In this document: positions 6,499 through 39,949 of the stretch, in pieces
How the letters are laid out: every line of letters starts with the position of its first letter
Numbering within the stretch: position 1 is the stretch's first letter
Assembly (NCBI GenBank): GCA_964236265.1
Contig: CAXSDE010000013.1
Span: 7,737 to 58,317, forward strand
Direction of reading: 5' to 3'
Source: an uncultured bacterium
Lineage (GTDB): Bacteria > Actinomycetota > Actinomycetes > JAVEEB01
Length of the DNA: 50,581 bases
Position numbers and translations under genes: made by a program
Notes under the pieces: generated by a model
Database searches by the model: none
Seen by the model: only the letters and a program-made list of their open reading frames with translations
What the model was told of the DNA's origin: nothing

Positions 6499-6502
<4 letters not shown>
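5438..6502 (+). CDS. rmlA: Glucose-1-phosphate thymidylyltransferase (long form)
   Basis: MKALVLSGGAGTRLRPITYTSAKQLVPVANKP, YLGDN, EEKP, RGELEIT and YWKDTG. Confidence 0.96.
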
Positions 6503-7481
<979 letters not shown>

Positions 7482-7485
<4 letters not shown>

Positions 7486-12092: not shown

Positions 12093-13055
12093 CTACCGAT
12101 CGCCGAGGCGTTCGCCCGTGCGAAACTCCCACGCGTCGGCGACGATGCTCTCGATGCCGTGCGTCGGCCGCCAACCCAGCTCGGCGGCGATCTTCTTGTT
12201 CGAGGCGACGAGTCGTGCGGGGTCGCCGGCACGGCGCGGCCCGACCTCGTACGGCACCGTGCGGCCCGACACCCGCTCGACCGCGTCGATCAGCTGCAAC
12301 ACCGAGAATCCGGAGCCGTTGCCGAGGTTGAAGATGCGGTGCCTGCCCTCTTCGGCACCGTTGAGCGCGAGGATGTGCGCGTCAGCGAGGTCGTCGATGT
12401 GCACGTAGTCGCGGACGTTCGTGCCGTCCTCGGTGTCCCAGTCGGAGCCGAACACGTGCAGCTGGTCGCGCGTGCCGGTGGCCGCGTCGATGATGAGCGG
12501 CACGAGGTGGGACTCGGGATCGTGGCGCTCGCCGCGGTCGCCGTGCGCGCCGCCGACGTTGAAGTAACGCAGGCTCACGGCGGCGAGGTCGAACGCCTTC
12601 GCATAGCCGCCGATCATGAGGTCGACGGCCAGCTTCGAGGCACCGTAGGGGTTGGTCGGGCGCGTCGGCGCGTCTTCCTCGATGGGCACGGTGTCCGGCT
12701 CGCCGTACGTTGCGGCACTCGAGGAGAAGACCAGCCGCTTGACGTCGTGCGCGACGAGCGCGTCGAGCAGTGCCATCGTCCCGGCGACGTTGGTGCGCCA
12801 GTAGAGGTCGGGCTTGCCGACCGACTCCGCGACCTGCGACTTGGCGGCGAAGTGCAGGACGCCGTCGAAGCCGCCCGCGAGGACCTTCCCGGCCTGCGTG
12901 ATGTCGGCCTCGACGAAGGTCGCCCCGTCCGGCACCGCGTCGACGAAACCGGTCGAGAGGTCGTCGAGCACCACGATCTCGTGGCCCTGCTCGACGAGGA
13001 CCGTCCCGACGCAGCTGCCGATGTAGCCGGCGCCGCCTGTCACGAGCAGTTTCAC
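12093..13055 (-). CDS. galE: UDP-glucose 4-epimerase
   Basis: [46 protein letters not shown] and VRDYVHI. Confidence 0.95.
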
Positions 13056-24783: not shown

Positions 24784-25017
24784 CCGCATGGCCCCGCCCC
24801 GGCCCCGCCTCGGCGACCGTGGCGCGCGCAAGGCGCAGAGCGACCAAACATCTGTTCCGGCGTATGTATCAGACCGGGGACATGGCGCTCTGACCAGGGA
24901 CGGGCACGGCCGTGTGGGCTGTCAGATCGCCACGCGGATGCGCCTGTGCCCGACTCCAAGTGAATTTTCCGATACCTGACCGCTCAGGTCGCCTCGCTGC
25001 GCGCCCAGATCGACGGG

Positions 25018-25527
25018 GTGAGCGCCCAACGTGCCGCGATCGTGAGCACGTTGAGCACCACGACGGCCAGTGCCAAGCCGCTCACGGCAGCGCAGACCGA
25101 GCTGTCGCAACTCGTGCTGTCTAGCAGCGTCGCCGCGCAGAACTTCTCGACGCTGAGCGGGCAATACCAGCAGGCGCTGCTGGGCTCCGGTCAGAACACG
25201 GTCGAGACGATGCACATCGACAAGGCCGCGCCACCGGTGCTGCCGACGAGCCCGATCCGCTACCTCTACCTCCTCGTCGGCTTGGTTCTCGGCGCCCTGC
25301 TGTCCTTCCTGATCGTGCACGCGCGGGTGCTGCGCCGCGCCCGCGCGGCGGGCGTCATCGATGAGGCGGCCGAGGCGGCCGACACCGACGCGCCGCACGT
25401 CGGCCTCGTCAACCTCGTGGAGGCCGAAACGCCAGGCGCCTCCATTCCCGTGCAGGTGCCGTCGGTCAACGGGCACGCCGCCGTGAGCGGCAGGGAAACG
25501 CCGCCCACCGATTCCGCGGGCGGCTGA
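25018..25527 (+). CDS. Short Wzz/CpsC-like polysaccharide co-polymerase fragment
   Basis: Helical Gln/Ser-rich segment, then IDKAAPPVLPTSP plus a TM helix (LYLLVGLVLGALLSFLIV), typical of the co-polymerase C-terminal half; no N-terminal TM. Confidence 0.55.
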   Translation: MSAQRAAIVSTLSTTTASAKPLTAAQTELSQLVLSSSVAAQNFSTLSGQYQQALLGSGQNTVETMHIDKAAPPVLPTSPIRYLYLLVGLVLGALLSFLIVHARVLRRARAAGVIDEAAEAADTDAPHVGLVNLVEAETPGASIPVQVPSVNGHAAVSGRETPPTDSAGG

Positions 25528-25528
25528 C

Positions 25529-27064
25529 GTGGTGGCCGCAACCTCGCACCCCGCAACCTCGCACCCCGCAACCTCGCACCCCGCAATCACGCACCCCGCT
25601 GCCGCTGCCTCGCCCGCTCTCGCGGAGACGAGCCTCGCCCGGCGCCTGGCCGTCAGCACCGCAAGCCAGCTGATGTCGCGAGCCGTGCACCTGGTGATCA
25701 ACGTCGTGTCGAGTCTGCTCATCGTGCGCTACCTGGGACCCGCCGGATACGGCGACTACGCCAAGGTGCTTGTCGTCGTCGGGTGGACGAGCCTCATCGG
25801 CGACGCCGGCCTGCCGAAGGTCGCACTGCGCGTCGCCGCCGATGCGCAGGTGCGGATCGGGAAGGTCGTCGGCACCGTGACGATCCTGCGGCTGGCGACC
25901 TCGCTGCTCGCCGCCGTCGTGACGCAGCTCGTGCTGACGGTGGTGCACCCCACCGCGGCGGTGCGCATTGCGGCGGCCGTCGCCTGCCTGGCGTTCGTCG
26001 TCGAGGCGCTGATGAGCTGCATCATCGCGTTCCAGGTGCGGCTGCAGCAGCACTACGAGGGTTTCGTCCGCGTCGCGATGGAGCTCGTGGAGCTCAGCTT
26101 GCTGCTCGCGGTCATGGCGGCGCACCGGGGACTGGTCGCCCTGTTCGCCGCGCCGGTCATCGGCGGGTTCTTCGGCGTCGCCCTCGCCGTGACGCTGACA
26201 CGGCGGCACTTCGCGGAACGCGCGACGTACGACAAAGACCTGGCGCGACGACTCGTCCGACTGACGCTGCCGGTCGTGCCCGGTGTGCTGCTCGGGGTGC
26301 TCATCCTCAAGCTTGACGGGCTGATGGTCGCGGCGCTGGGCACCCGCACGGACGCCGGTGTCTACGTCGCGGCGTTCCAACCGATCGAATACGTTTTCCT
26401 CGGCCTCGGAATGGTCGTCGCCTACCCGTTCCTGCCCGTCCTGGTGGCCAGCCGCCGCGACAACCAGCCACTGTTCGTCTCCTCCTACCGCCACGCGACC
26501 GAGCTCGTCCTCGCCATCACGCTTCCTGTGGCCGCGATCGTGGCGGTCGTCGGCGGGCCCCTCGTCCACGCGATGTACGGCGACGGCTGGGCGAGGGCCG
26601 TGCTGCCTCTGCAGATCCTCGCCGTCGCGCTCGCCTTCATGTCCGTCTCCGGCTGGCACGGCTTCGTGCTGCTCGCGGGCGACAAGCAGATCGACAGCCT
26701 CCGGTACGGCGCGCTCGCGCTCGTTGTCAGCTTCGGCGTCTGCGTCGCCCTGATCGGCCGGCTGGGCCCGGTCGGCGGCGCGTGGGCGGCGCTCATCGCC
26801 AACGTGGTCGGCATGGTCTACTCGGCGTTGCTCGTCCACAACCGCGTGCAGGCGGCCTTCCCCGCGCGACGAGCGGCGCAGCTCGTCGCGGCCAACGCCG
26901 CCCTCGCCGGCGTCCTGTTTGCCCTGCGCTCCGCGGGCGTTGCGTGGCCTGGGCTGATCGTGGCAGCTCTTCCCGTCTACGCCGGCACGCTGTGGGCCTT
27001 CCGCATCGTCCGCGGGGCCGACATCCGCGCTCTCTCGCGCGCCGGTGACGGGAGCACCGCGTGA
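25529..27064 (+). CDS. Wzx-type oligosaccharide flippase
   Basis: About 12-14 hydrophobic segments; IVRYLGPAGYGDY, LKLDGLMV..AGVYVAAF and MYGDGW..LQIL motifs. N-terminal ATSHP x4 (15-bp repeat, 25536-25599). Confidence 0.88.
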   Translation: MVAATSHPATSHPATSHPAITHPAAAASPALAETSLARRLAVSTASQLMSRAVHLVINVVSSLLIVRYLGPAGYGDYAKVLVVVGWTSLIGDAGLPKVALRVAADAQVRIGKVVGTVTILRLATSLLAAVVTQLVLTVVHPTAAVRIAAAVACLAFVVEALMSCIIAFQVRLQQHYEGFVRVAMELVELSLLLAVMAAHRGLVALFAAPVIGGFFGVALAVTLTRRHFAERATYDKDLARRLVRLTLPVVPGVLLGVLILKLDGLMVAALGTRTDAGVYVAAFQPIEYVFLGLGMVVAYPFLPVLVASRRDNQPLFVSSYRHATELVLAITLPVAAIVAVVGGPLVHAMYGDGWARAVLPLQILAVALAFMSVSGWHGFVLLAGDKQIDSLRYGALALVVSFGVCVALIGRLGPVGGAWAALIANVVGMVYSALLVHNRVQAAFPARRAAQLVAANAALAGVLFALRSAGVAWPGLIVAALPVYAGTLWAFRIVRGADIRALSRAGDGSTA

Positions 27065-28095
27065 ACGAGGACTGGCCGACGTTCTCCGTCGTCATCCCGA
27101 CGTACAACCGCAGTGACGTCGTCGAACGCACGTTGCGCTGCCTCGACGCGCAGGACTACCCGCCCGGCAGGCTCGAGGTCATCGTCGTCGACAACTCCAC
27201 CGATGGCACGCCCGACATGGTGCGCCGCGTCGCCGCGGAGTCGGCCATCGGCATCCGCCTGCTCGAGCCGCCCGACCGCATGCCGGCCACCAAGCGCAAC
27301 ATCGGTCTCGCCGAGGCGACGGGCGAATTCGTCCTGTTCATGAACGACGACCTGTGGCTCGTGCCCCAAGCGATAAGGGAGCATGCACTCGCGCATCGCG
27401 CCCGCGGCGGTGAGCCCGTCGCCGTCCTCGGTCGCACGATCCAGTCACCGGAGATGCAGCAGACGCCCTTCATCGAGGTGTACGAACCGTTCGCGTACTT
27501 CGAGCTCGGTCCCGCGCCCCGTCGCGACCTGCGCTGGTGGTACTGCTGGAGCATGAACCTCTCGCTCCCGCGTGAGGTGATGCTGCGGCGAAACCTCGTC
27601 TTCCACACCGACTGGCGGGAGATCGGCAGCGAGGACGTCGAGCTCGGCTGGCGCTGGACGCAGGCGGGGTATCCCCTCGACTACGCACCCGCCGCGTGGG
27701 GTCAGCACTTCCACCCGCACACCCTCGATTCCGCGTCGCGGCTGCAGGCGAGCATCGGCCGCGGCGTTCGTGACCTCGAGTCGCTGGTCCACGACCCCGA
27801 GCTCCACGAGCGCTGGGGCATCTTCTCCTGGCGCAACTCCCCCCGGACGGTCCTGCGTTCCGTTGTGCGCACCGCGTTGTTCAACCGGGCCACGGTGGGG
27901 CCGGTCGCACGCTGGCTGGAGAGCCGCACGCGCAACACCGCGGCGAGCCGCTGGCTCTACTGGAAAGTCCTGCTGCACCACACGAACAAGGCCTACCGCG
28001 CGACCCCCACGCGTCAGGTGCCCCCGACGCCGACGCTGCCCGACGGCGTCCTCGTGCCCGACGGCGTCCTCGTGTCCGGGGCGGAGCCGGCATGA
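27061..28095 (+). CDS. Glycosyltransferase family 2
   Basis: FSVVIPTYNR, VIVVDNSTDGT, RNIGL, LFMNDD and SEDVELGWR. Confidence 0.92.
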   Translation: MNEDWPTFSVVIPTYNRSDVVERTLRCLDAQDYPPGRLEVIVVDNSTDGTPDMVRRVAAESAIGIRLLEPPDRMPATKRNIGLAEATGEFVLFMNDDLWLVPQAIREHALAHRARGGEPVAVLGRTIQSPEMQQTPFIEVYEPFAYFELGPAPRRDLRWWYCWSMNLSLPREVMLRRNLVFHTDWREIGSEDVELGWRWTQAGYPLDYAPAAWGQHFHPHTLDSASRLQASIGRGVRDLESLVHDPELHERWGIFSWRNSPRTVLRSVVRTALFNRATVGPVARWLESRTRNTAASRWLYWKVLLHHTNKAYRATPTRQVPPTPTLPDGVLVPDGVLVSGAEPA

Positions 28096-31000
28096 GCACC
28101 GCCGCGCTCCCGTCGACACGCCGCCAGCGCGTGACCGAGATCGGTGTGCCGGTCGTGGCCGCGACGATCCTTGCCGTTGGACTCGCGGGCGGTCACAAGA
28201 AGTCGCTCATTGCCGTGATCGGTGGCATCGCCATCATCGGCATGCTCATCCTGTCCGCGCGCCGCGAACGGGTGATGGTGGCCTTCCTCACCGTGTCGAT
28301 GGCGTTCATCCTGCACAAGTCGTTCGGCGCGATCGCGCTCGAGAACGGTGGCGCGCCCTCCATCTATATCAGCACTGTCGGTGTGTGCGTCCTCCTCCTC
28401 TACGGCTGCTGGTTCCTGTCCGGGGACATGGGCGCGGACCTGCGGCGCGGCATACGCCACTGGGTGTTGGCTGCCCCTGTTGTCGGCATGGCGTTGATGC
28501 TGCCGAGCTTGCTCATCTCGCCCGCGGTGCGCCTCGGTGTCGCCGAGGAGTTGCAGCTCGGCATCCTCTACCTGCTCTTCGTGTACGTCGCACTGCGCGT
28601 CAACCGGCGGGATGTCGCGATGATCCTCGTGCTGCTCGCGGGCGTGACCCTGCTCGAGGGCGTGGCGGCGCTCGGGCAATGGGTGACGCACGGTCCGCTC
28701 GGCCTTTCGTTCCTCGGTCTGCCGAGCGAGCTGGGTCAGCGCGTCACCGCCGACGGCATCCTCGGCCGGCCGTTCGGCACGATCACGCACCCCGTGTTCC
28801 TCGGCGCGTTCGTCGGCCAGCTAGGGCTGCTGTTCCTCTCGCTCGCTGTCGTCGCGCAGCGTCGCTGGGAGCGCGTCGCCGCTATGGCCCTGGCGACGTG
28901 TGCCGGTGCGACGATCGCGGTGGCGCAGGCCCGCTCGGCGGCGCTCGGGTTCGCGGTCGCGACGCTCGTCATCGTCGTCGTCTCCCTCGCCGTCCGGCGC
29001 ATGCAGTGGCGCACCGTGCGTCGGGGCATCGTCGCCGTGCTCGTGCTGGCAGTTCTTACCTCGCCGCTGCTGATCCGGCTGTATCACGTGTCGCTGTTCA
29101 CCGATCATTTCTCGCTCGAGGTGCAGGCGCGTGGTCAGCTGCTTGACCTCGGCTGGCACATCTTCGCGTCGCGACCGTTCCTCGGCACGGGTCTCAACTC
29201 GTTCCAGCAGGTCATGGATTCGTTCGCGACGACGTCGCTGATCTTCGATGGCAATCCTGTGCACAACATCTACGTGCTGCAGGCCGCCGAGACGGGCGTC
29301 GTCGGCGTGCTCGCGATCCCCGTCGTGGCGTTGTCGTTGTTGTGGGTCGCGGTGCGCGCGGCCCGCTCGCCCGACCGGCTCGGGTCCGGTCTCGGCATCG
29401 CTCTCATCGCGGTGATGACGTTCCTCGGCGTCGAGGAGCTGTTCGTGTTCTCGCTCCGCGAGGACCATCCCCGCTCCCTGTTCTGGTTGCTCGCCGGGCT
29501 CACCGTCGCCGCCGCACGCTTCGCCGGCCTCGTGCCGGGCAGCGACGGCGGCGAGCCCGCCGACCCCGACGCGGGTCCGCGTCTCGTGCGCCGCGCCTGG
29601 GCATGGCTCACGCCGCCGCTGGTCGGGGCCCCGGCGCGTCCGGCCCGGACGCGGCCTGCCGCCGTCGTCCTCGCGACCGTAGCTGCGCAGGCCGGTCCCA
29701 CGACGGCGAACCGGCGTGGTGCCCGGAAGCCTCGGGCCGCCGCCGCGCCGGCCTTCGTGCGCGGAATCGGGTCACAGCGACGGCGCTCGCCCTGGACAAC
29801 GCCCGGCGCCGCGTTCCTGGCCATCACCGGCCTCGTCGCCAGCATCCTCGCGGGCACAGTCACCCTCGCCCCGCCGGCAGCCGCCGCCCACCTGCAGGTC
29901 GTGCTGTCGCTCACCGACCGCGGCACCGGCGGCCAGGGTCTGTACGTCGCCAACGGCGACGGGTCCGGTCTGCACCCGATCACGGCGACGGGCGCCGGCA
30001 CGACGTACGGCTTCGCCGACTGGACACCCGGTGGGCGGCGGCTCACCTACTCCAGCGACACCCCGACGGCGCGCGGACAACTTTTCCTCGCCGCGGGCGA
30101 CGGCTCGCACAGCGTGCAGTTGACCAGCACGCCCTGGCAGAACGGGCAGCCGCACATGTCGCCCGACGGCCGCAGCCTGTTGTTCACCGCGGCGCCGCCC
30201 GACCTTCCCCTCTATGGCCTGTTCCGCATGGACATCGCGTCGGGCCTCGTCACCAACCTGTCGGCCCGTAACTCGACGAGCGCCGCGGTCGACACCGACC
30301 CCAACTGGTCACCGAACGGGCGCAACGTCGTGTTCGTCGAAGGCGCCCGCCCTCGCGACACCGGGGTATCCGCGCAGCCGTCGCAGGTCTACACGATGGC
30401 GGCCGACGGCACGGGCCGTGTCGCGGTCACTCACGACGACCACTACAACGTCGACCCCGTCTACTCACCCGACGGACGCACGATCGCGTTCTCCAGCTAC
30501 CACGGCACGCACCCGGCCAACTCATCGGGCACGCCCGGCCCGCTGACGCCGACGGTCAAACTCGACGACTTCTTCCTGGTGACGCACGACCTTGCGACCG
30601 GCGCGGAGCGGGTGTTCAACAAGGGCGACAACTGCGCTCTCCGGGACCCGGCCGACCCGTGCGCGCCGCTGGACGGCCCGGCGTATCTGCCGAAATACCT
30701 TCCTGGCGGAAAAAGCCTGGCCTACCTGGGCATCCTGGACCGGACGACGGTGTGCGTCTGCGCCGTCGACACGGACGGCGGCAACCCCCGAGTGCTGCTC
30801 GCGTTCGCCCAGCAGACTGTCAACTGGTTCGACTTCACGATCCCAGGTGACGAGCCCGCGACCGCCGCGACGCCGCACTCAGCAGACCCGACCGACCGGC
30901 TTCTCATCCTCACGCACGACGCCGCCGGCCATGCGTCCCTCACGATCTCCACCTCCGACTACTGGACGCGCGTCCCGGTGCAGCTGCCCAAGGGCCTGCA

Positions 31001-31898
31001 CGTCCTGAAGGCCCGCTGGGGATCCGACGCCCACCACGTGCTGCTCACCGCGAGGACCGCCACGGTCGATCCGGCGACCCTGGTCCCGACACCCGCGGCA
31101 CCGCGTGGCCGCGCGCGTCAACGGCACTTCACGCTCGACATGTTACCCGCGGGCACCTCGCTGGCGTTGCGCGCGCCGGCCCCGGCCGACCGCGCGCGCA
31201 TCGACCGGCAGCAGGTGTTCGACCTGGACATCATGACCGGTACCGTCGCCGCCGTCACCACTGCGGGGACCGAGGACTGGCTCGACGCGATCCCCGACGG
31301 CGCCTGGCGCGGCAACGGCGAGGCCATGCCGATCCCGCACAGCCACGCGGTGGTCTTCACCAACTATGCGAGCGACACCGCCGAGTCGTTCCTCCTGCGC
31401 AAGGACCTCGTCACTGGCGCCGTGCGCAGCCTGACCAACGCGACCTCGGGTGCGCTGCCCGTCTCGGACAGCCAACCGGCGGTCTCGCCCGACGGAAAGA
31501 CGGTCGCGTTCGTGACCGGTCACGACGGCGGCACCGATCTGGCGGTCATGTCGGCGAAGACGGGCAACGGCTACCGGCTGCTCACCGACGACGCCGAGGT
31601 GAAGGCCGCCCCGGCGTGGGGCCCTGACGGGTCGTGGCTGGTCTACGCCTCGCTGCGGGCAGGCCAGTGGTCCCTCGTCCGACTCGATGTCGCATCCGGC
31701 CGCCACACGGTGCTGGTGCAGACGTACGGGCAGGCGCAGTCGCCGGTGGTCTCGCCGGACGGCAAACGGATCGCCTACATCTCCTTCAACCACAACCCGG
31801 CGCAGCCCGACGTGCAGATCGTCGACTCCGACGGCGGCAATGCGCACCCCTTGCAGATCACGCTCCCGACGACGGAGGTCTCCCTTGACTGGCGCTGA
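28092..31898 (+). CDS. O-antigen ligase/Wzy-family membrane domain fused to TolB-like (PD40) beta-propeller region
   Basis: aa 1-480 is polytopic with RPFGTITHP, ARSA, RPFLGTGLNSF and VHNIYVLQAAETGVVG. aa 600-1268 carries about nine P-x-W/Y-SPDG-type repeats. Confidence 0.85.
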   Translation: MSTAALPSTRRQRVTEIGVPVVAATILAVGLAGGHKKSLIAVIGGIAIIGMLILSARRERVMVAFLTVSMAFILHKSFGAIALENGGAPSIYISTVGVCVLLLYGCWFLSGDMGADLRRGIRHWVLAAPVVGMALMLPSLLISPAVRLGVAEELQLGILYLLFVYVALRVNRRDVAMILVLLAGVTLLEGVAALGQWVTHGPLGLSFLGLPSELGQRVTADGILGRPFGTITHPVFLGAFVGQLGLLFLSLAVVAQRRWERVAAMALATCAGATIAVAQARSAALGFAVATLVIVVVSLAVRRMQWRTVRRGIVAVLVLAVLTSPLLIRLYHVSLFTDHFSLEVQARGQLLDLGWHIFASRPFLGTGLNSFQQVMDSFATTSLIFDGNPVHNIYVLQAAETGVVGVLAIPVVALSLLWVAVRAARSPDRLGSGLGIALIAVMTFLGVEELFVFSLREDHPRSLFWLLAGLTVAAARFAGLVPGSDGGEPADPDAGPRLVRRAWAWLTPPLVGAPARPARTRPAAVVLATVAAQAGPTTANRRGARKPRAAAAPAFVRGIGSQRRRSPWTTPGAAFLAITGLVASILAGTVTLAPPAAAAHLQVVLSLTDRGTGGQGLYVANGDGSGLHPITATGAGTTYGFADWTPGGRRLTYSSDTPTARGQLFLAAGDGSHSVQLTSTPWQNGQPHMSPDGRSLLFTAAPPDLPLYGLFRMDIASGLVTNLSARNSTSAAVDTDPNWSPNGRNVVFVEGARPRDTGVSAQPSQVYTMAADGTGRVAVTHDDHYNVDPVYSPDGRTIAFSSYHGTHPANSSGTPGPLTPTVKLDDFFLVTHDLATGAERVFNKGDNCALRDPADPCAPLDGPAYLPKYLPGGKSLAYLGILDRTTVCVCAVDTDGGNPRVLLAFAQQTVNWFDFTIPGDEPATAATPHSADPTDRLLILTHDAAGHASLTISTSDYWTRVPVQLPKGLHVLKARWGSDAHHVLLTARTATVDPATLVPTPAAPRGRARQRHFTLDMLPAGTSLALRAPAPADRARIDRQQVFDLDIMTGTVAAVTTAGTEDWLDAIPDGAWRGNGEAMPIPHSHAVVFTNYASDTAESFLLRKDLVTGAVRSLTNATSGALPVSDSQPAVSPDGKTVAFVTGHDGGTDLAVMSAKTGNGYRLLTDDAEVKAAPAWGPDGSWLVYASLRAGQWSLVRLDVASGRHTVLVQTYGQAQSPVVSPDGKRIAYISFNHNPAQPDVQIVDSDGGNAHPLQITLPTTEVSLDWR

Positions 31899-33813
31899 CC
31901 GACAGCCCGACCGCATCAGCGTCGTGGTCGTCAACTACAACGCGGGCGAGTTGCTCGACCGTTGCCTGGACAGCGTGCGCCAGCACGGGTCGCCGCACGT
32001 GCTGGAGACCATCGTCGTGGACAACGCTTCGGTCGACGGTTCCGCCGACCGGGCCGCGGGACGGGACGACATCGTGCTGGTCCGGAGCGCGACGAACGAC
32101 GGCTTCACCGTGGCCAACAACGCGGCCATCCGCCGCAGCCGCGGTGAGTTCGTGCTAATGCTCAATCCCGACGCCGAGCTGACGCCCGGCGCGCTCGGCG
32201 TCCTGATGCGCACGATGCGTGAGCACCCACGCACCGGGGCCGTCGGCCCGCGGCTCGTCTACCCGGACGGCCGCTTCCAGCGGTGGACGGCGGGCCGCGA
32301 GCCGGGAGTGCTGCCCATGCTCGCGTTCGTCACGGGCGCCGACCGGGTCGCCGACCGCGTCACCGCGCCATCGGGCCTGTTCCTCGCGCACGACGTCGCG
32401 CGACCCCTGCGGCCGGACTGGCTGTGCGACGCGGCCCTGCTGTTGCGGCGAACGGCCCTCGACCAGGTCGGCCTGCTCGATGAGGGTTTCTTCGCCTTCA
32501 TGGAGGACGTCGACCTGTGCCGACGCCTGCGCGAAAGCGGTTGGGCGGTGCGCTACGAGCCGTCAGCGACGTGCATCCATGTCACCGGCGGGAGTGCCCC
32601 CACAAAGGCCGCGGCCAAGCGTCCTGACTACGCCGTGATCAACCTCGTCCGCTACCACGCCCGCACGAGCAGCCGGCCGCGGCACGCGGCGTTCCTCGCC
32701 GTTGCCGGTCTCGGTTTCTTGTCCCGATACGCAGCCCACACCGTGCTGTCGGTCACGTCCGCCGACAAGGCGGCACACCGCACCGCCCGCACGTCCCACC
32801 TGCGCCATCTGCGCGCCCTCATGAGCGGAGGCCCGGTGCCCCGACCGGCGACAACGGACATCACGGACACTGTGACGACCACGACGACCCCCACGACCCC
32901 CACGACCAATGACCACGATGGGCACGCCGACTCCCCTCCAGGACAGGCGCACGCGCACGCGCACGGGCATGGACACGGGCATGGGCGGGACGACGGCGGG
33001 CTTTCCCCGGCGGAGCGGCACCAGCACGAGATCGACACGTACAACGCGCTGGCGATCGAACGCTGGGGCGACGTGCCCGACAGCGAACTGGTGCAGGACC
33101 CCGCGACCCCGCCGTTTCCCAACCGCGCGCACGTCGACTTCCTGACCTATGCCGTTGAGCATCTGCAGCCGCTGCAGGGTGCCCGGGCGCTCGAGGTCGG
33201 TTGCGGCAGCGGGTCGCTCGCGACGTACTTGGCCCTGTTGGGCGCCGATGTCACGGCCATCGACCTGTCGGACGGCATGGTGGCGGTCACCAACCGGCGC
33301 GCTGCCGCCAACGGCGTGGCCGACAGGTGTCACGCGATCACCGCCGCGGTCGAGGAGCTCGACCTGCCCGACGAGTATTTCGACATCATCATCGGCAACC
33401 AGGTGCTGCACCACGTGGAGCTCGAACTCGGGATGAAGAACATGGCGCGCATGCTCGCGCCGGGTGGCCGCGTCGCGTTCTGCGAGCCGGTGCTGTTGCT
33501 CCCCGAGACCGCGCGGCGCGTTCGCAACAGCCGCGCAGTGACCCGGTTGTTCCCGCTGCGCACGGACAGCCCCGACGAGCGTTCCCTCGGTCAACGCGAG
33601 CTCGACATCATCACCGGCGCATTCGACGTCTCGCACCTCGAGACATTCCAGATCATGACCCGGCTCGAAAACTTCGTGCCGGTGAACGACAGGTGGTACC
33701 GACGGCTCGAGGCCGCCGACCGCTTCCTGCTGCGCCGTCTCCCGTCGAGCGCCACGCTCGGCCGTTACGTCGTCGTCACCGCGGGGCGATCGACAGACAA
33801 GGACAACCGATGA
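31885..33813 (+). CDS. GT2 glycosyltransferase fused to a class I SAM methyltransferase via a Thr/His-rich linker
   Basis: TTG 31885 after GGAGG; SVVVVNYN, VVDNASVDGS, LNPD and FMEDVDLC; linker TTTTTPTTPTT..HAHAHGHGHGH; then LEVGCGSG, AIDLS, FDIII..VLHH and LAPGG. Confidence 0.85.
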   Translation: MTGADRQPDRISVVVVNYNAGELLDRCLDSVRQHGSPHVLETIVVDNASVDGSADRAAGRDDIVLVRSATNDGFTVANNAAIRRSRGEFVLMLNPDAELTPGALGVLMRTMREHPRTGAVGPRLVYPDGRFQRWTAGREPGVLPMLAFVTGADRVADRVTAPSGLFLAHDVARPLRPDWLCDAALLLRRTALDQVGLLDEGFFAFMEDVDLCRRLRESGWAVRYEPSATCIHVTGGSAPTKAAAKRPDYAVINLVRYHARTSSRPRHAAFLAVAGLGFLSRYAAHTVLSVTSADKAAHRTARTSHLRHLRALMSGGPVPRPATTDITDTVTTTTTPTTPTTNDHDGHADSPPGQAHAHAHGHGHGHGRDDGGLSPAERHQHEIDTYNALAIERWGDVPDSELVQDPATPPFPNRAHVDFLTYAVEHLQPLQGARALEVGCGSGSLATYLALLGADVTAIDLSDGMVAVTNRRAAANGVADRCHAITAAVEELDLPDEYFDIIIGNQVLHHVELELGMKNMARMLAPGGRVAFCEPVLLLPETARRVRNSRAVTRLFPLRTDSPDERSLGQRELDIITGAFDVSHLETFQIMTRLENFVPVNDRWYRRLEAADRFLLRRLPSSATLGRYVVVTAGRSTDKDNR

Positions 33814-34937
33814 AGATCTTGGCCACCGGCACCGCCGGCATGCTCGGCAGCGGACTGGTCCCTGCGCTCGTCGCGGCCGGTCACGATGTCGTGGCGACCG
33901 ACATCAACCTCGCTGACCCCGCACCGTTCGGTGCCGACGGGCCGGCGTTGCAGCACCTCGACGTGCGCGACCGCGGTGCGGTGAGCGACGCCGTCGATGA
34001 GGTCCGGCCGGACCTGGTGGTGCACCTCGCGGCCGTCACGGGTCTGGAGGACTGCGAGAACGACAGCGACAACGCGTGGGCGACAAACGCTCTCGGCACG
34101 AAGCATGCGGCCCTCGCCGCCAAGAGCGTCGGGGCGGCGATCGTCTACATCAGCACCGCCGGTGTTTTCGACGGCACCAAGACAACGCCGTACGACGAGT
34201 ACGACGCCGCCAACCCCATCAACGTCTACGGGGCGTCGAAGTACGAGGGCGAGCGCTTCATCCGCTGGTTTTCCGACAAGGCCTACATCGTGCGGGCCGG
34301 CTGGATGGTCGGCGGCGGGGCGAAGGACCACAAGTTCGTGGCCCGCATCCTCAACCAGGTCCGCGACGGCCGCGACACCATCTACGCGGTCGACGACAAG
34401 CTCGGGACCCCCACGTACGTGCCGGACTTCAGCGCCTGCTTGTGCCGCTTGATCGCCAAGCAGGCCTACGGTCTCTACCACATGGCGTGCGAGGGCGAAG
34501 GGAGCCGGTACGACGTCGCCTGCGCGATCATCGACGTGCTGGGGCTTTCCGACCGCGTGCGTGTCCTGCCCGTCTCCTCCGCCCACTTCGCCGAGGAGTT
34601 CTTCGCCAACCGCCCCCCGTCGGAGATCATGCGCAACCGGTCTCTCGACCTGCAGGGCGACAACACGATGCGCCCATGGCGCGTCGCGATCGCCGATTAC
34701 CTCGCGGTGCACATCGCCAGCGACCCGACGCTCGTCGCACCGCCACGCACCGTCCCCGCCCAACGGCCCGACATCGTGACCAGGCCCGACATCGTGACCA
34801 GGCCCGATGTCGTGACCAGGCCCGACGTCGTGACCATGCCCGACGTCGTGACCAGGCCGGACGTCGTGGCCATGCCGAAGGTCCCGCAGCCGATATCGCC
34901 CGCCCTCGTCACCACACCGGAGTTGAGCCAGCCATGA
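33810..34937 (+). CDS. RmlD-family NDP-4-keto-sugar reductase (divergent second copy)
   Basis: ATG 33810; TGTAGMLG, VHLAA, YISTAGVFDG, VYGASKYEGE and GTPTY; C-terminal (R/M)PD(I/V)VT x6. Confidence 0.88.
   Translation: MKILATGTAGMLGSGLVPALVAAGHDVVATDINLADPAPFGADGPALQHLDVRDRGAVSDAVDEVRPDLVVHLAAVTGLEDCENDSDNAWATNALGTKHAALAAKSVGAAIVYISTAGVFDGTKTTPYDEYDAANPINVYGASKYEGERFIRWFSDKAYIVRAGWMVGGGAKDHKFVARILNQVRDGRDTIYAVDDKLGTPTYVPDFSACLCRLIAKQAYGLYHMACEGEGSRYDVACAIIDVLGLSDRVRVLPVSSAHFAEEFFANRPPSEIMRNRSLDLQGDNTMRPWRVAIADYLAVHIASDPTLVAPPRTVPAQRPDIVTRPDIVTRPDVVTRPDVVTMPDVVTRPDVVAMPKVPQPISPALVTTPELSQP
34764..34877 (+). repeat. In-frame 18-bp tandem repeat x6
   Basis: AGGCCCGAC(A/G)TCGTGACC-type units encoding RPDIVT/RPDVVT. 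Confidence 0.9.
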
Positions 34938-36013
34938 CCGACCTGACCACGACCATCCCTTCGCAGGCAAGCCCGACGAGCCCGCGCACCGCGTCGGTCG
35001 CCGTCGTCATCCCGATGCCGAGCGACCCCGACTGGGCCCTGTTCGATCACGTGCCGGCCGACGTGCCGATCCTCGTCGTCGACGACAGCGACGGGAAGCT
35101 GGCGCCGCCGCCGCGCGACAACGTCACCTATTTCGACTACGGCTCGCAGCGTGACTACATGGGCGAGGCCAACTGGCCGGCCATCCCGCACAAGAGCGCC
35201 GCAACCCGCAACTTCGGGCACTTCTTCGCCTACAAGGAGGGCTACGACGTCATCATCGCCCTCGACTACGACTGCCGCACGCGCGAGGGCTGGCTGGCGG
35301 ACCACCTCGGCTCGCTCGGCATGGTCCTCGACGCACCCGCGCTGAAGGCGGACTGGATCAACTCGGTCGACGTGCCCGGGTGGTACGCGCGCGGCTTCCC
35401 GTACGAGTCCCGCAACACCGACTACGCGCCGGAGGTCACGACCGCGACTGGCATCGTGAAGCTCAACATGGGTCTGTGGGACCACGTGCTGGACCTGAAC
35501 GGGATCGACAAGCTGCAGGCGGAGCCGCCGTACGGTCCGCATGTTCCGGACGTCAACCGCGTCGCCTTGGGCAACATCCCGGTGTGCGGCATGAACAACG
35601 TGTTCTCCGCCGACCTGACCCCCGCATACTTCTTCCTGCCCGACCTGTCCGTCGATGGGTGGAAACTGAGCCGACACGACGACATCTGGGGCGGCTACAT
35701 CACCAAGAAACTGATGGACCTGCGCGGTGACCTGTTCACGTTCGGCAAGCCGGTCGTCGAGCACACGCGGCAGACCCCGCTCGAGCGCGTCGTCGTGATG
35801 GAGCACTGGATGCACCTCATGGCGCGCGAATTCTTCGCCGTCGTCGACGAGGCCGTCGCGACGGTGAAGGTCGCCGACTACACGACCATGTTCGCCGACT
35901 TCACCGAGGCTTACCTGTCGGTGGCCGGGCGCAGCACCGCACCGATGCACTACCGGAAGGTCTACCGGGAGCTCGGCGAGACGATGCAGCTCTGGGCCGC
36001 ATGCTTCGCCTAG
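34934..36013 (+). CDS. Reversibly glycosylated polypeptide / UDP-arabinopyranose mutase-like protein (GT75)
   Basis: Motifs colinear with plant RGP: KSAATRNFG, IIALDYDC, ARGFPYESR, NMGLWDHVLD, PVCGMNNVF, PAYFF and RHDDIWGGY. ATG 34934 overlaps the upstream stop. Confidence 0.8.
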   Translation: MTDLTTTIPSQASPTSPRTASVAVVIPMPSDPDWALFDHVPADVPILVVDDSDGKLAPPPRDNVTYFDYGSQRDYMGEANWPAIPHKSAATRNFGHFFAYKEGYDVIIALDYDCRTREGWLADHLGSLGMVLDAPALKADWINSVDVPGWYARGFPYESRNTDYAPEVTTATGIVKLNMGLWDHVLDLNGIDKLQAEPPYGPHVPDVNRVALGNIPVCGMNNVFSADLTPAYFFLPDLSVDGWKLSRHDDIWGGYITKKLMDLRGDLFTFGKPVVEHTRQTPLERVVVMEHWMHLMAREFFAVVDEAVATVKVADYTTMFADFTEAYLSVAGRSTAPMHYRKVYRELGETMQLWAACFA

Positions 36014-37177
36014 AAACGACGACCCGACCGCTGCGCGCGGCCATCGACGGCCGCGCGCTCGGGTCCGGCTGGGGTGGCGAGGAGACCTACCTGCGGGCCA
36101 TGCTGGCCGGCCTCGCCGAGGTAGGCGGACAGCTCGACCGGTTCCCCGTGTGGATGCGCCCAGGGCTCGAGCCACCCGCCGAGATCGTCGGCGCCGCCGG
36201 CATCCCCGTGCGCCGGCTCGTGACTGCCGTGGGGCCGTGGCATTACGCCGTTCGGTTGCCCCGCGCGGTGCGGCGCGGGAGCGACGACGTCGACGTTCTG
36301 TGCTCGACGACGCACGCGCCGTTGCGGTCCGCCGTCGCGACCGCATTCATCATCGGCGACCTGTCCCCGTTCCACCATCCGGAGTGGTTCCCCCGGCACA
36401 CCGTCGTCCGGCTGCGGGCCGCGTGGCCCATCCACGCACGGCAGGCGGCCGCCGTGCTCGTGCCGTCGGAGTTCACACGCCAGGATGTCATCGAGCGGCT
36501 ACGGGTCCCCGCGGAGCGCGTGTTCGTCGTACCGCCGCATTCCCTTTCTGCGACGACCTGGCGCGACGACGACGACGGCGATGTGCGGCGGGCGGCGGGA
36601 ATCGACGGGCCCTACGTCCTGTCGCTCGGCAACCTGCACCCGCGCAAGAACGTCGGCCGCCTCATCCGCGCGTTCGTCGCGGCGCGATCCGTGCCGGGCA
36701 GCCCCGTCCGTGAGCACCAGTTGGTCATCGCCGGTGGCACGTGGTGGCGCGACGGGGAGGAGCAACGGCTGGCCGCGGCGGCGCCCCCCGGCTCCGTCCG
36801 CATGCTGGGACGCGTCGACGACGCCCGGCGACGCGTTGCTCGCCGGCGCGACGGCTCTCGCCTACGTCTCGCTGTTCGAAGGGTTCGGCCTGCCTCCGAT
36901 CGAGGCGATGGCGGCGGGCACCCCGGTCCTCGTGTCGACCGCCGGCGCCTTGCCCGAGACGTGCGGAGATGGCGCCCTGTACGTCGATCCCTCCGATGTC
37001 GATGCCATCGCGGACGGGCTGACGCGCCTCTGCGAAGAGGCACCGACGCGTGCGTCCCTGCGGCTGCGCGGGTCCGCCCGAGCCGCCGAATTCAACGCCG
37101 CCCGCACCGGGCACGCCGCCCGCGCGGCCCTCGCGTATGCCGCCTTCGGCTCTTCCCCGGCAGCGGTGACGCCGTGA
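36001..37177 (+). pseudogene. GT4 (GT-B) glycosyltransferase with a frameshift near 36829
   Basis: The first frame gives AIDGRAL..GGEETY, DLSPFHHPEWF, VPSEFTR and LGNLHPRKN. The C-terminal DALL..SLFEGFGLPPIEAMAAGTPV is in the +1 frame from 36830. Confidence 0.85.
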
Positions 37178-38361
37178 CGTACGGCCCGTCGCCCCGCGAC
37201 CTCGCGCCGCCGCCCTGGCCGGCGCCCCCGTCCGTCGCCGCGCGCCCGTCGGTCGCGGCGGCGGGCCCTCCGCCGCCACAGGAACCGCCACCACACATAC
37301 CGCCACGGCAACCGCCACGGCAGCGCCCTCGTCGGTCCCGGCGCCGCCGGATCATCCTGCGCACGTTGGCAGCACTGCTGAGTTTAGTTGTCGTGCTGAT
37401 CGCCACGGCCGTCGTCATCGTCTACCGCCAGAACCACCGCGCGGTCACTCCGCTGCCGCCGCCGTTCAGCCTGCCCGCTTCGACGGCGGTGCCGGCCGAC
37501 CACCTGTTGTTCGACTCCGACCGCGCGGGCAACTACGAGATTTTCGCCATGGCCGACGACGGCACCGGCATCCGTGCGATCACCAGCGACCCCACGTACG
37601 ACTCGTGGTGGCCGCAACTCTCGCCCGACCGCACGCATCTACTGTTCTACCGCTCCCCGCGCGGCACCCACGACCGCGACGCCACCGCCAACAGCCTGTG
37701 GGTCGGCAACGCCGATGGCACCGAGCTGCACGAACTGCTGCCGGCCGGCGCGTACGGCTGGGTGCAGCAAGGGCACGCCGAATGGTCGCCCGACGGTCAG
37801 CACCTCGTGATGTTCGCGGGGTCCCGGATCAACCCGCAGCTATGGGAGACGGACGTGCAGGGCCGCAACGCGAAGGCGCTGACATCGCGGCCCGGTGTGA
37901 GCCTCGACCCGTCGTGGTCGCCGGACGGCGACAAGGTCGCGTTCATCGCGTGTCCCGCCCGCGTGTGCTTCGCCGCCGATTACGAGGTGTACGTGCTCGA
38001 TCTCGCCGGCGGGACCAGCACCCGCGTGACGACAAACACGCTGCGAGACCACGACCCCGTGTTCTCCCCCGACGGCACACGGCTGGCGTGGCTCGCGGAG
38101 ACGGCCACCGGGCCGGCCGCGGGCGTCTGGAACGTCCGTTCGGCGGCGCTTGACGGCAGTGACCTCCGCGATGTCACGCACGACGGCAACATCAACAGCC
38201 GGCCGGCCTACTCACGGAACGGCACGGTCATCTACTTCCACCGGCTCGTCTACGGTGCGGCGCCCGCGAGCTTCCAGATCTGGCGCGTATCGCCCGACGG
38301 CTCGGGGCTTGCTCCGGTGGGCGCCGAGCAGCCCGGCAACAACGAATACCCCGCGCCATGA
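37174..38361 (+). CDS. Membrane-anchored TolB-like (PD40) beta-propeller protein
   Basis: GTG 37174; Pro-rich N-terminus, Arg cluster and TM; FDSDRAGNYEIF, PQLSPD, EWSPDG, PSWSPDG, PVFSPDG and PAYSRNG. Confidence 0.85.
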   Translation: MTYGPSPRDLAPPPWPAPPSVAARPSVAAAGPPPPQEPPPHIPPRQPPRQRPRRSRRRRIILRTLAALLSLVVVLIATAVVIVYRQNHRAVTPLPPPFSLPASTAVPADHLLFDSDRAGNYEIFAMADDGTGIRAITSDPTYDSWWPQLSPDRTHLLFYRSPRGTHDRDATANSLWVGNADGTELHELLPAGAYGWVQQGHAEWSPDGQHLVMFAGSRINPQLWETDVQGRNAKALTSRPGVSLDPSWSPDGDKVAFIACPARVCFAADYEVYVLDLAGGTSTRVTTNTLRDHDPVFSPDGTRLAWLAETATGPAAGVWNVRSAALDGSDLRDVTHDGNINSRPAYSRNGTVIYFHRLVYGAAPASFQIWRVSPDGSGLAPVGAEQPGNNEYPAP

Positions 38362-39023
38362 CGGTGCCGGGCCAGCAACGGAACAGGAGTGCCAGCATGC
38401 GGGACATCTCGGTCTACACGGACCCCGATCCGAGTCTGCGGCGCATCATCCGCGCGGACCTCGTCGCGATGGCGCGGCTGAAGGGCCGCGCCTTCAGTGC
38501 GATCGCGGTGCTCGACGTGCTCGCACTCCCGGGAACGTGCGCCGTGTTGCTGTTCCGCTTGTCGCACGCGGCACATCATCACCACCTGCGGCCGTTTTCG
38601 CGGTTGTTCTACTTCCTCAACGTCGTGCTCTTCGGGGCCGACCTCGCACCGACGGCGAAGGTCGCTCCGGGCATGGCCATCGGCCATCCCGTCGGGGTGA
38701 CGATCGGCGGCAACGTCACGATCGGCCCGCGCGTCGTGCTGACCGGACAGGCGGGCGTCGGTGGTGGGCTTCGACCCGACGGCCGCGTGCAGCGGGGTCC
38801 CATCGTGGGCAGCGATGTCGTGTTCTTCTACCGCGCGATCGTCCTCGCCGACGTCGTCATCGGCGACGGCGCCGTCATCGGGGCCAACAGCACCGTGCTC
38901 CACGACGTGCCCCCGCGGAGCGTCGTCATCGGCAACCCGGCGCGCGTGCGATCGACCCGCGACGAGATGGTTTTCGACAACGAAGAGGACTGGTGGCGCG
39001 ACACCTGGGCGGCGGCCGAGTGA
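38358..39023 (+). CDS. Hexapeptide-repeat O-acetyltransferase (CysE/WcaB-like)
   Basis: LFRLSH, GMAIGHPVGVTIG and VIGDGAVIGANSTVLHDVPPRSVVIGNPAR. Confidence 0.88.
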   Translation: MTVPGQQRNRSASMRDISVYTDPDPSLRRIIRADLVAMARLKGRAFSAIAVLDVLALPGTCAVLLFRLSHAAHHHHLRPFSRLFYFLNVVLFGADLAPTAKVAPGMAIGHPVGVTIGGNVTIGPRVVLTGQAGVGGGLRPDGRVQRGPIVGSDVVFFYRAIVLADVVIGDGAVIGANSTVLHDVPPRSVVIGNPARVRSTRDEMVFDNEEDWWRDTWAAAE

Positions 39024-39949
39024 CGACCCCGCCCGACGTCTCGGTCGCTTTCGTCAGCTACGAGTGCCGCGATCTCCTGCTCGAGAGCCTGCGCCGACTG
39101 CCGGCCGCCTTCGTACACGTCACCTTCGAGGTGATCGTCGCCGACAACGCGTCGAGCGACGGCGTCGTCGCGGAGTTGCGGGCGCACCACCCTGAGGTGA
39201 CAGTGCTCGAGCAGGGCGCCAACCTGGGTTTCTCCCGCGCCAACAATGCGGCCTTCGCCGTGGCGCGCGGGCGCTACGTGCTCGTCCTCAACCCCGACAC
39301 GGAGCCCGATCCGGGTTCCCTCGCCGCGCTCGTCGCCTACGCCGACGGCCACCCGGGCAGCGGCCTGTATGCGCCCCACCTCGTCAACAGCGACGGCACG
39401 GACCAGCGCACCGCCCGCTCGTTCCCGACGATGTCGGCGGCGGTCTTCGGCCGGCGGTCGCCGCTGACGCAACTCTGGCCGGCCAACCCGTGGTCCACGC
39501 GCTATCTGCGCACGGGTATCCCCGCGGACGGCGCGACCGCGTTCGCCGTCGACTGGGTCTCGGGCGCGTGCATGCTCGTGCCCGCCGCGGCGCTCCGCGC
39601 GGTCGGCGGCTTCGACCCGCGGTATTTCATGTATTGGGAGGATGCCGATTGGTGCCGGCGGATGTGGAACGCGGGACTGCCGGTGACGGTCGTCCCTTGG
39701 GCCCGGGTTCTGCACCACGAGGGCGGCAGCCGCCGCGGCTGGCCGGCGCGGCAGGTCATCGCGTTCCACGCGGGGGCCCTGAGGTTCTGGCGGTCGCACG
39801 TGGCAACTGGCTGGGCCGCTCCACTGGCCGTCCCGGCGGCGGTGGCGCTCGCCGCCCGCGCCACGCTGACCATCTGCTGGCAGGCGGCGAGCGCGTCACG
39901 CGCCCGTGTTGCCGGCCCTCCGGCGGCCGCAGCCAGTCGCGAGCCCTAG
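39020..39949 (+). CDS. GT2 glycosyltransferase (WbbL-like rhamnosyltransferase type)
   Basis: GTG 39020; [31 protein letters not shown] and [17 protein letters not shown]. Confidence 0.9.

Follow-up and report, generated by a model that had tools for sequence, protein, structure and literature searches.

A GT75-Family Homologue Paired with an RmlD Paralogue in a Surface-Glycan Cassette of an Uncultured Actinobacterium: A Predicted Flavin-Independent Sugar Nucleotide Mutase

Introduction

Furanose sugars occur in the surface polymers of microbes and not in mammals, and their activated donors are hard to synthesise. To our knowledge the sole well-known bacterial route to them is that of the flavoenzyme Glf and its relatives. 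Fcf1 and Fcf2 of Escherichia coli O52 represent a pair of a C4-reductase and a flavin-dependent mutase that provides 6-deoxyhexofuranose donors at the level of deoxythymidine diphosphate (dTDP) sugars. The present analysis concerns a stretch of 50,581 nucleotides (hereafter the window; contig CAXSDE010000013.1 of assembly GCA_964236265.1) from an uncultured actinobacterium, in which positions 34934..36013 of the forward strand encode a 359-residue protein (hereafter the query) of glycosyltransferase family 75 (GT75), related to the plant reversibly glycosylated polypeptides (RGP) and to the bacterial enzyme MtdL and annotated on the basis of phmmer, profile, and fold matches as a predicted nucleoside diphosphate (NDP)-sugar pyranose-furanose mutase. 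Judged by analogy with its relatives, the query quite likely interconverts NDP-pyranoses and NDP-furanoses, and it is likely to be an active flavin-independent, Mn2+/Mg2+-dependent enzyme that feeds the surrounding surface-glycan cassette, probably acting on a 6-deoxyhexose linked to a pyrimidine nucleotide.

The closest described systems are MtdL of Marinactinospora thermotolerans (A201A pathway) and Hyg20 of Streptomyces hygroscopicus (hygromycin A pathway), two actinomycete GT75 mutases which interconvert the pyranose and furanose forms of guanosine diphosphate (GDP)-L-galactose (Galp/Galf) and GDP-L-fucose (Fucp/Fucf) with a divalent cation and no flavin (PMC9937993). Among bacteria, these two antibiotic pathways are the only ones for which the metal-dependent GT75 route was demonstrated (PMC9937993). 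Because both enzymes are characterised, a plant-type GT75 protein in an actinobacterium, regarded as unexpected in the original prediction made for this gene, is not new, and the accompanying remark that prokaryotic homologues are little characterised was an understatement, since mutase activity was shown for MtdL and Hyg20 and crystal structures of MtdL were solved (7xpr, 7xps, 7xpt, 7xpu, 7yua, and 8hl8; PMC9937993). The kind of enzyme is already known, also in actinomycetes. A search for bacterial GT75 mutase literature gave, among the matches listed, only PMC9937993 as concerning bacteria by title, and nothing relevant was found linking the term reversibly glycosylated polypeptide to actinobacteria; the clade with a D-[YSNH]-D motif described below, its pairing with an RmlD paralogue, and the Glf-poor cassette spread over four phyla appear to be unreported in the literature searched.

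The catalytic apparatus of MtdL includes a metal site formed by Asp111 of a DXD motif and His287, while the middle Asp of this motif binds ribose O2; the nucleophile is proposed to be Arg159, with Asp260 acting as base, and the activity is lost in the D87N/S, D109N, R159K, D195N, Q229A, R257K, and D260N variants (PMC9937993). Selection of guanine has been proposed to depend on Thr13, Asn42, and Ser86: the dissociation constant for GDP rises from 0.2 to 5.66 µM in T13P (about 28-fold) and to 1.24 µM in N42D (about 6-fold), and S86D abolishes GDP binding (PMC9937993). Active plant enzymes using uridine diphosphate (UDP) sugars have Pro in place of Thr13 and Asp in place of Asn42, those of class 1 have Ser where MtdL has Asp87, and the inactive class-2 AtRGP5 is without the equivalents of His287 and Arg257; OsUAM1 and AtRGP2 are able to form UDP-Galf, and the conserved Arg of GT75 proteins becomes autoglycosylated (PMC9937993). 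The CAZy GT75 family is stated to have once had only 9 bacterial entries, and three DxD motifs were described in it (PMC6861824). Outside GT75, a gene pair of a C4-reductase and a flavin mutase in Campylobacter jejuni HS:41 yields 6-deoxyhexofuranose donors (PMC12369002).

The GT75 Gene and Its Family Membership

The gene occupies a stop-free frame; its start codon and the stop codon of the preceding RmlD paralogue overlap (ATGA at 34934-34937), with GGAG at 34919-34922, 12-15 nt 5' of the ATG, and its stop codon lies 13 nt within the downstream GT4 gene. The third-position guanine-cytosine (GC) fraction is 0.83-0.97 in this frame from 34930 to about 36010, and the favoured frame shifts at both flanks; a chance frame in GC-rich DNA was ruled out by this codon-position signal together with 362 homologues at E ≤ 0.001. 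The translation contains, in the order claimed, the six strings that had been read as RGP motifs, namely, SAATRNFG (88-95), IALDYDC (108-114), RGFPYESR (153-160), GLWDHVLD (180-187), PVCGMN (216-221), and RHDDIWGG (247-254).

Pfam returned 0 families for the query even at E ≤ 10, RGP (PF03214) included, and NCBIfam gave only a sub-threshold N-terminal GT2-like/GT-A match (MftF, 18.3 bits versus a cut-off of 280); since both libraries were silent on the protein itself, membership was established via PDB sequences, orthologues, and fold. The hidden Markov model search against Pfam RGP that had been suggested as a check thus failed for the query but succeeded for its orthologues, of which 7 of 7 scanned passed the PF03214 gathering threshold of 23.8 bits (25.0 bits for P0002, 88% identical to the query; 34-48 bits for five other homologues; 32.3 bits for the orthologue at locus L023). 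With the single sequence, phmmer against PDB sequences found MtdL at E 4.6e-18 over residues 72-280, and a profile of 40 family sequences (the query and 39 of the best 120 homologues) found MtdL at E 3.3e-27 and the rice class-2 UDP-arabinopyranose mutase (UAM) 8cid at E 3.9e-5.

An AlphaFold2 model of the query (predicted local distance difference test 87.9, predicted template modeling score 0.88, residues 1-18 disordered) has a GT-A Rossmann-like N-terminal part, a GT75-specific core, and a C-terminal helical domain. Foldseek matched it to MtdL along the full length (template modeling (TM) score 0.81-0.82, E 1.6e-25, about 375 columns) and to rice UAM2 at TM 0.62 (E 2.3e-14), while the next fold after the GT75 structures was GalNAc-T2 at TM 0.41, ordinary GT-A enzymes reaching at most this value. 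By sequence comparison and model the product is securely a GT75-family homologue, as had been proposed, and it is clearly nearer to bacterial MtdL than to the plant enzymes, so that it is not specifically "plant-type"; the positions that it has in common with plant enzymes, Pro27 and Asp53, also occur in most prokaryotic members. Fused forms of the family were also considered: the sole longer protein, of 805 residues, joins half of the query to Hexapep and GT4 parts and is most likely a merged gene call, therefore giving no Rosetta-stone evidence.

Catalytic and Nucleotide-Binding Residues

To sample the superfamily, a profile was run against 1.84 billion cluster representatives. It matched 1114 clusters at E ≤ 0.001, and of these 645 had E ≤ 1e-10 and 90 had E ≤ 1e-30; the best 150 of the 1114 clusters and the query provided 117 representatives of at least 300 residues. 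Residues were mapped by HMMER alignments to MtdL and rice UAM2 and by a MAFFT alignment of the query with these representatives. The nucleophile Arg159 of MtdL corresponds to Arg153 of the query, within R-G-F-P-Y; the metal site is kept as Asp113 and His277 (Asp111 and His287 in MtdL), with Tyr and not Asp as the middle motif residue; the base and phosphate-site residues Asp260, Asp195, and Arg257 are Asp250, Asp187, and Arg247; and Asp109, Arg289, Arg90, and Ser86 are found as Asp111, Arg279, Arg92, and Ser88. Changed are Asp110 (Tyr112), Asp87 (Ala89), Asp197 (Asn189), and Ser228/Gln229 (Gly219/Met220), and in the nucleotide pocket Thr13 (Pro27), Ile15 (Pro29), and Asn42 (Asp53), the query reading D-Y-D, S-A-A, D-L-N, and C-G-M-N where MtdL reads D-D-D, S-D-N, D-V-D, and N-S-Q-N. 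None of the mapped positions, kept or changed, varies among the aligned family members (40 of 40), which makes them properties of a clade rather than accidents of a single gene. Across the 117 representatives the catalytic positions are kept in 110-116 (Arg153 in 115, Asp187 in 116, Arg247 in 113, Asp250 in 116, and His277 in 111), and the conserved catalytic arginine that had been claimed is thus borne out. The residues shown to be essential in MtdL are all retained except Asp87 and Gln229.

The comparison with plants relied on the rice class-2 UAM2 alignment and on residue equivalences stated in PMC9937993, the class-1 strings being those given in the original prediction. With class-1 plant enzymes (OsUAM1, AtRGP1-3) the query shares the family, the R-G-[FY]-P motif that includes the glycosylated Arg, and the Pro and Asp that replace Thr13 and Asn42 of MtdL. 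The C-G-M-N string, with Met at the position of MtdL Gln229, is presumably also a class-1 feature. The query differs from class 1 in Ser88/Ala89 (Asp/Ser in plants) and in its prokaryotic operon context; D-Y-D stands in its second (metal) motif, where plants have D-D-D, their D-Y-D lying in the third motif (PMC6861824). With D-Y-D and Ser-Ala at 88-89 the query does not show the class-1 pattern, the plant structure compared being the rice class-2 one, to which its similarity is remote (profile E 3.9e-5, TM 0.62). Rice UAM2 has Thr at the Arg257 position, Arg at the His287 position, and S-G-I-N in place of C-G-M-N, whereas at the first two of these the query carries the residues of active enzymes.

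These residues bear on the alternative that the protein is not a mutase at all, being instead a self-glycosylating or arginine glycosyltransferase, or a silent class-2 RGP-like scaffold, that acts as primer or assembly factor of the cassette. Such a role would fit the autoglycosylation of the conserved Arg in GT75 proteins (PMC9937993), the Ala and Met at two positions essential in MtdL, and the result of the search for an initiator of the WcaJ type, which was not found in the window (tblastn with E. coli WcaJ, matching contigs C1 and C75 only; WecA-type initiators were not searched) and gave a match in only 5 of the 64 related loci introduced below. However, Arg247 and His277 are invariant here and both are lost in inactive AtRGP5 (PMC9937993), with Thr and Arg in UAM2; the autoglycosylated form is viewed as an intermediate in mutase turnover, and a primer may yet exist, the search having covered the WcaJ type. 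A non-mutase role is on this balance quite improbable.

The D-Y-D variant pointed out in the original prediction proved to be a fixed feature of the clade, found in 40 of 40 aligned members and in only 8 of the 117 representatives, and a sequencing oddity is ruled out by this invariance. A FastTree phylogeny with Shimodaira-Hasegawa-like support was computed for 107 rows, without plant or archaeal labels, after removal of ten fragmentary or aberrant ones (P0132, P0138, P0176, P0199, P0204, P0205, P0211, P0217, P0226, and P0247). The clade containing the query comprises 21 clusters (local support 100), each with Y, S, N, or H as the middle residue of the metal motif, hence D-[YSNH]-D. The MtdL-type clade of 14 clusters (support 99), labelled via P0261, which matches MtdL at 2.5e-72, is separate and retains the T/I pair and N-x-Q-N. 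The full MtdL signature (Thr, Ile, and N-x-Q-N) is present in 16 of the 117 representatives, P0261 among them; Pro occupies the Thr13 position in 88 and Met the Gln229 position in 96, and Pro29 is peculiar to the query clade.

The query therefore resembles MtdL and Hyg20 in family, full-length fold (TM 0.82), catalytic set, actinobacterial host, and predicted independence of flavin and differs from MtdL in its identity of about 24% in the structural alignment and its separate clade. It might nevertheless be their functional orthologue, a GDP-L-fucose or GDP-L-galactose mutase fed by the gmd-fcl pair of the same genome: MtdL is the closest solved and characterised relative, and homologues of both gmd and fcl lie on contig C1, 54-55% identical to the E. 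coli proteins (tblastn). GDP is disfavoured as the nucleotide because Thr13, Ile15, and Asn42 are not retained, the sugar contacts Asp87, Ser228, and Gln229 are replaced as well, and among the 64 related loci tblastn found gmd in 2 and fcl in 1. With Pro27, Pro29, Asp53, Ala89, Gly219, and Met220 the query stands outside the MtdL/Hyg20 subfamily, and its gene lies in a Wzx/Wzy glycan cassette with an RmlD paralogue, the genes of MtdL and Hyg20 being located in antibiotic clusters with GDP-sugar genes. The GDP-sugar alternative is the least probable of those considered, and very improbable in itself.

Pairing with an RmlD Paralogue and Conservation of the Cassette

The gene immediately upstream (33810..34937, +) encodes a 375-residue paralogue of RmlD, of the short-chain dehydrogenase/reductase 4-ketoreductase type (Pfam RmlD_sub_bind, 2e-68), translationally coupled to the GT75 gene through the ATGA overlap. 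It matches the RmlD family over its full length (TIGR01214; 1vl0, 3sc6, and 5u9c), scores 228.4 bits against TIGR01214, marginally over the equivalog cut-off of 224.05, and has dTDP-4-dehydrorhamnose reductases as best PDB matches (e.g., 1vl0 at 1e-45). From canonical RmlD it differs in being a second copy, in scoring at or below the cut-off in carrier genomes, and in possessing here a repeat-rich C-terminal tail, (R-P-D-I/V-V-T)n, encoded by an 18-bp tandem repeat of 6.2 copies (91% matching; 34765..34876, +). Related loci leave only about 1 kb for the paralogue, and the repeat tail seems specific to the genome of the window.

Conservation was followed by a locus scan with one genome per species, which provided 64 loci with GT75 relatives at 43-72% identity. 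The carriers are mostly Acidimicrobiia and other Actinomycetota metagenome-assembled genomes (MAGs), joined by MAGs of Limnocylindria (Chloroflexota), Acidobacteriota, and Methylomirabilota; cultured carriers are Actinopolymorpha pittospori, Humibacillus xanthopallidus (two strains), Nakamurella leprariae, and a Micromonospora sp. When the cassette proteins of the window were used as tblastn queries, gene order was alike in most of the 64 loci across the four phyla, the Wzy/PD40 gene being present in 57, the GT2 part of the GT2-methyltransferase fusion in 58 and its methyltransferase part in 39, GT4 in 49, the acetyltransferase in 47, and PD40 in 45.

The RmlD paralogue, counted at an identity of at least 45% over at least 100 residues (tblastn), immediately precedes the GT75 gene on the same strand in 50 of 64 loci, and counting any copy located up to 8 kb away raises the number to 55. 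Among the nine loci without it, L046 and L062 have less than 1 kb of upstream sequence, and in L004 and L007 an alternative gene order would place it just past the fetched edge. At L023 (6935-9023, an uncultured member of Acidimicrobiales) the two genes form an isolated pair outside any such cassette, flanked by genes for APH/kinase-like, beta-lactamase-family, and tryptophan-halogenase-like flavin adenine dinucleotide (FAD) enzymes and not by polysaccharide genes, a setting that may belong to small-molecule glycosylation; at L063 the pair is accompanied by only part of the cassette. The arrangements at L023 and L063 imply that the pair can move as a unit.

At the genome level 51 carriers were checked for RmlD and Glf, these being the genomes of 50 of the 64 loci and that of the window itself. 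At least two RmlD-family genes at E ≤ 1e-20 were present in 49 of 51, and the scores are bimodal, about 260-306 bits for the canonical copy and about 190-229 for the cassette copy (mostly 190-224 and below the cut-off in the other carriers); in the cases compared, G000 and G026, the low-scoring copy maps inside the cassette locus. The copy in the cassette thus represents a distinct subfamily and is not simply the housekeeping RmlD.

Glf was absent from all 64 loci (tblastn), and over the cut-off of TIGR00031 it was found in 2 of the 51 carrier genomes, any match at E ≤ 1e-10 in 4, in a check in which many genomes had only 30 first-look candidates scored and most were incomplete MAGs. In the assembly of the window (3.14 Mb, 103 contigs, 90.7% complete) no Glf homologue was found by tblastn or the TIGR00031 profile. 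With no recognisable Glf in the genome, the alternative route of furanose supply suggested originally remains plausible.

Proposed Mechanism and Substrate

On the model of MtdL, the diphosphate-bound metal would be coordinated by Asp113, in D-Y-D, and by His277, the β-phosphate would be bound by Arg247 and Arg279, and Arg153, activated by Asp250 and positioned by Asp187, would attack C1 to form a transient Arg-sugar adduct, after which ring opening, re-closure of O4 on C1, and release of the NDP-furanose would follow. The product would then serve as donor for a GT2 or GT4 transferase of the Wzx/Wzy cassette. In this scheme the mutase activity and its metal dependence, like the nucleotide and the sugar, are what we infer.

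A source of substrate is suggested by dTDP-sugar genes elsewhere in the window: canonical rmlA (5438-6502, +; TIGR01208, 470 bits), rmlB (about 6502-7485, +; TIGR01181, 442 bits), and rmlD (about 7491-8342, +; TIGR01214, 284 bits), all over their cut-offs and matched also by E. coli RfbA/B/D (tblastn), are predicted by their sequences to supply dTDP-4-keto-6-deoxyglucose and dTDP-L-rhamnose, and rmlC, encoding a dTDP-4-dehydrorhamnose 3,5-epimerase (10516..11109, -), scores 157.1 bits against TIGR01221 (cut-off 155.75). The window also holds galE, for UDP-glucose 4-epimerase (12093..13055, -; TIGR01179, 367 bits versus a cut-off of 262.3). The other sugar nucleotide pathways were sought in the assembly by tblastn with twelve E. 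coli K-12 proteins, and no UDP-xylose/arabinose pathway gene was found with these queries, only a 24%-identical Ugd-like match. As the window is without UDP-xylose/arabinose genes and contains rmlA/B/D/C, galE, and a second RmlD, the earlier suggestion of a sugar different from that of plants is reasonable.

The RmlD paralogue would make a dTDP-6-deoxyhexose from the dTDP-4-keto-6-deoxyhexose pool of the window rmlA/B/C, and that this product is the substrate of the GT75 protein is a possibility of somewhat less than even chance. A dTDP-6-deoxyhexose leads the candidates because of the co-transcribed paralogue, the dTDP-sugar genes of the window, and the reductase-mutase precedent of C. jejuni HS:41 (PMC12369002). 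Like the two genes discussed here, HS41.18 and HS41.17 of that organism are an adjoining pair in a surface-polysaccharide cluster, whose products reduce an NDP-4-keto-6-deoxyhexose and then contract its ring; in contrast, the HS:41 mutase is a Glf-type enzyme dependent on reduced FAD, of a fold unrelated to GT75, the nucleotide is cytidine diphosphate, and the reductase apparently lies outside the RmlD subfamily (PMC12369002). Among particular sugars dTDP-6-deoxy-L-talose is the leading candidate, a tentative one, and dTDP-D-fucose comes second. RmlD homologues such as Tll make dTDP-6-deoxy-L-talose, galacto- and talo-configured sugars readily form furanoses, and 6-deoxy-L-talose has the same configuration at C3-C5 as L-fucose, a substrate of MtdL.

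A further alternative would make the protein a UDP-D-galactopyranose (or UDP-L-arabinopyranose) mutase resembling class-1 plant enzymes and substituting for Glf, which would provide the cassette with UDP-Galf, while the RmlD paralogue would independently feed another residue, a different 6-deoxy sugar, of the polymer. Pro27 and Asp53 are the residues given for active plant enzymes, of which OsUAM1 and AtRGP2 can form UDP-Galf (PMC9937993). The C-G-M-N string, presumably a class-1 feature, is also in line with this alternative, galE in the window is a possible source of UDP-galactose, and Glf is lacking in the genome of the window and in 47-49 of the 51 carriers; moreover, as synteny is cassette-wide, adjacency to the paralogue alone says little against this alternative. 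The paralogue and the GT75 gene, however, also occur as a pair away from the cassette (L023), position 88 has the Ser of MtdL instead of the plant Asp, position 29 is Pro and not the Ile of MtdL and plants, and the similarity to plant UAM is weak in both profile and fold; arabinose is unlikely given the weak Ugd-like match and the absence of UDP-xylose genes with the queries used. A UDP-sugar substrate is accordingly improbable, though less so than a GDP-sugar or a non-mutase role.

Several points weigh against the preferred reading, a GT75 mutase acting on a dTDP-6-deoxyhexose. Pfam RGP gives no match to the protein itself, Asp87 and Gln229 of MtdL are Ala89 and Met220 in the query, the middle Asp of its DxD motif is Tyr112, and the third Asp of the MtdL D-V-D is Asn189; the query clade is characterised from sequence and predicted fold. 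The paralogue is about 6 kb from the GT75 gene in 5 loci, genome G043 (holding L055) showed a single partial RmlD-family match only, and, since the whole cassette is syntenic, adjacency of the two genes is weak evidence that they catalyse consecutive steps. An RmlC-family match was found in 48 of 50 carrier genomes and also in 11 of 14 control genomes, so that the presence of RmlC is no discriminating test of an L-series substrate. Finally, 6-deoxy-L-talose is favoured on the strength of the known products of Tll-type homologues and of general carbohydrate chemistry, and a full-text literature search for talofuranose gave only metabolomics and phytochemistry titles among the matches listed.

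It is conceivable, if rather speculative, that the RmlD paralogue and the GT75 protein form a flavin-free two-gene module for a dTDP-6-deoxy-L-hexofuranose, for example, dTDP-6-deoxy-L-talofuranose, and mark an undescribed multi-phylum surface glycan that has spread both vertically and horizontally; no record of such a sugar nucleotide or residue was found in the literature searched. This GT75 branch is fixed in a cassette of at least 64 species-level genomes from four phyla, nearly all of them without Glf. Should the branch prove active, the primary cell-envelope glycans of these abundant soil and water lineages would obtain their furanoses mainly through GT75 mutases, a pyrimidine-linked 6-deoxyhexose would probably be accepted, which would widen the substrate range for enzymatic synthesis of NDP-furanoses, and D-Y-D, S-A-A, and the Pro-Pro pair would represent natural variants that probe the Arg-adduct mechanism and the rules of nucleotide selectivity. 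Because cultured carriers exist, the question is directly testable.

The Surrounding Cassette and Other Genes of the Window

The cassette is a one-strand block from about 24964 to 39949, in which a GNVR-like open reading frame (a weak match), Wzx, GT2, Wzy_C-PD40, and GT2-methyltransferase genes are followed by the RmlD paralogue, GT75, GT4, PD40, hexapeptide acetyltransferase, and a further GT2 gene. The Wzx-type flippase (25487..27064, +; Pfam Polysacc_synt_3, 2.9e-19) precedes the first GT2 glycosyltransferase (27049..28095, +; Glycos_transf_2, 2.5e-21), which is present in 47 of 64 loci. The next gene (28092..31898, +) encodes an O-antigen ligase/polymerase-like Wzy_C membrane domain (2.4e-11) fused to PD40/TolB-like beta-propellers (PD40, 3.2e-28), and a stand-alone PD40 protein is encoded farther downstream. 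It is followed by a GT2 fused to an S-adenosylmethionine-dependent methyltransferase (31687..33813, +; Glycos_transf_2, 2.6e-23; Methyltransf_11, 2.2e-22).

Beyond the GT75 gene, the GT4 gene (36001..37177, +) has its frame broken near 36817-36830, the N-terminal half (Glyco_transf_4) lying in the 36001 frame (frame 1) and the C-terminal half (Glycos_transf_1) in the 36485 frame (frame 2); the halves are in one frame in 46 of 49 related loci, and the break reflects either a genuine pseudogene or an indel introduced during assembly of GC-rich sequence. The second beta-propeller protein of the PD40 type, which has a hydrophobic segment at its N-terminus (37300..38361, start approximate, +; PD40, 1.6e-16), a hexapeptide-repeat O-acetyltransferase (38358..39023, +; Pfam Hexapep; NCBIfam EpsC/CysE-like, 1.1e-30, below the cut-off), and the third GT2 glycosyltransferase (39041..39949, start approximate, +; Glycos_transf_2, 3.4e-19) complete the block.

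Near the start of the window a HipA-like kinase gene (2292-3656, -; HipA_C, 5.8e-47) adjoins a gene of the LemA family, and between galE and clpB there is a gene of glycoside hydrolase family 76, the alpha-1,6-mannanase family (13123-14118, +), which has no apparent relation to the cassette.

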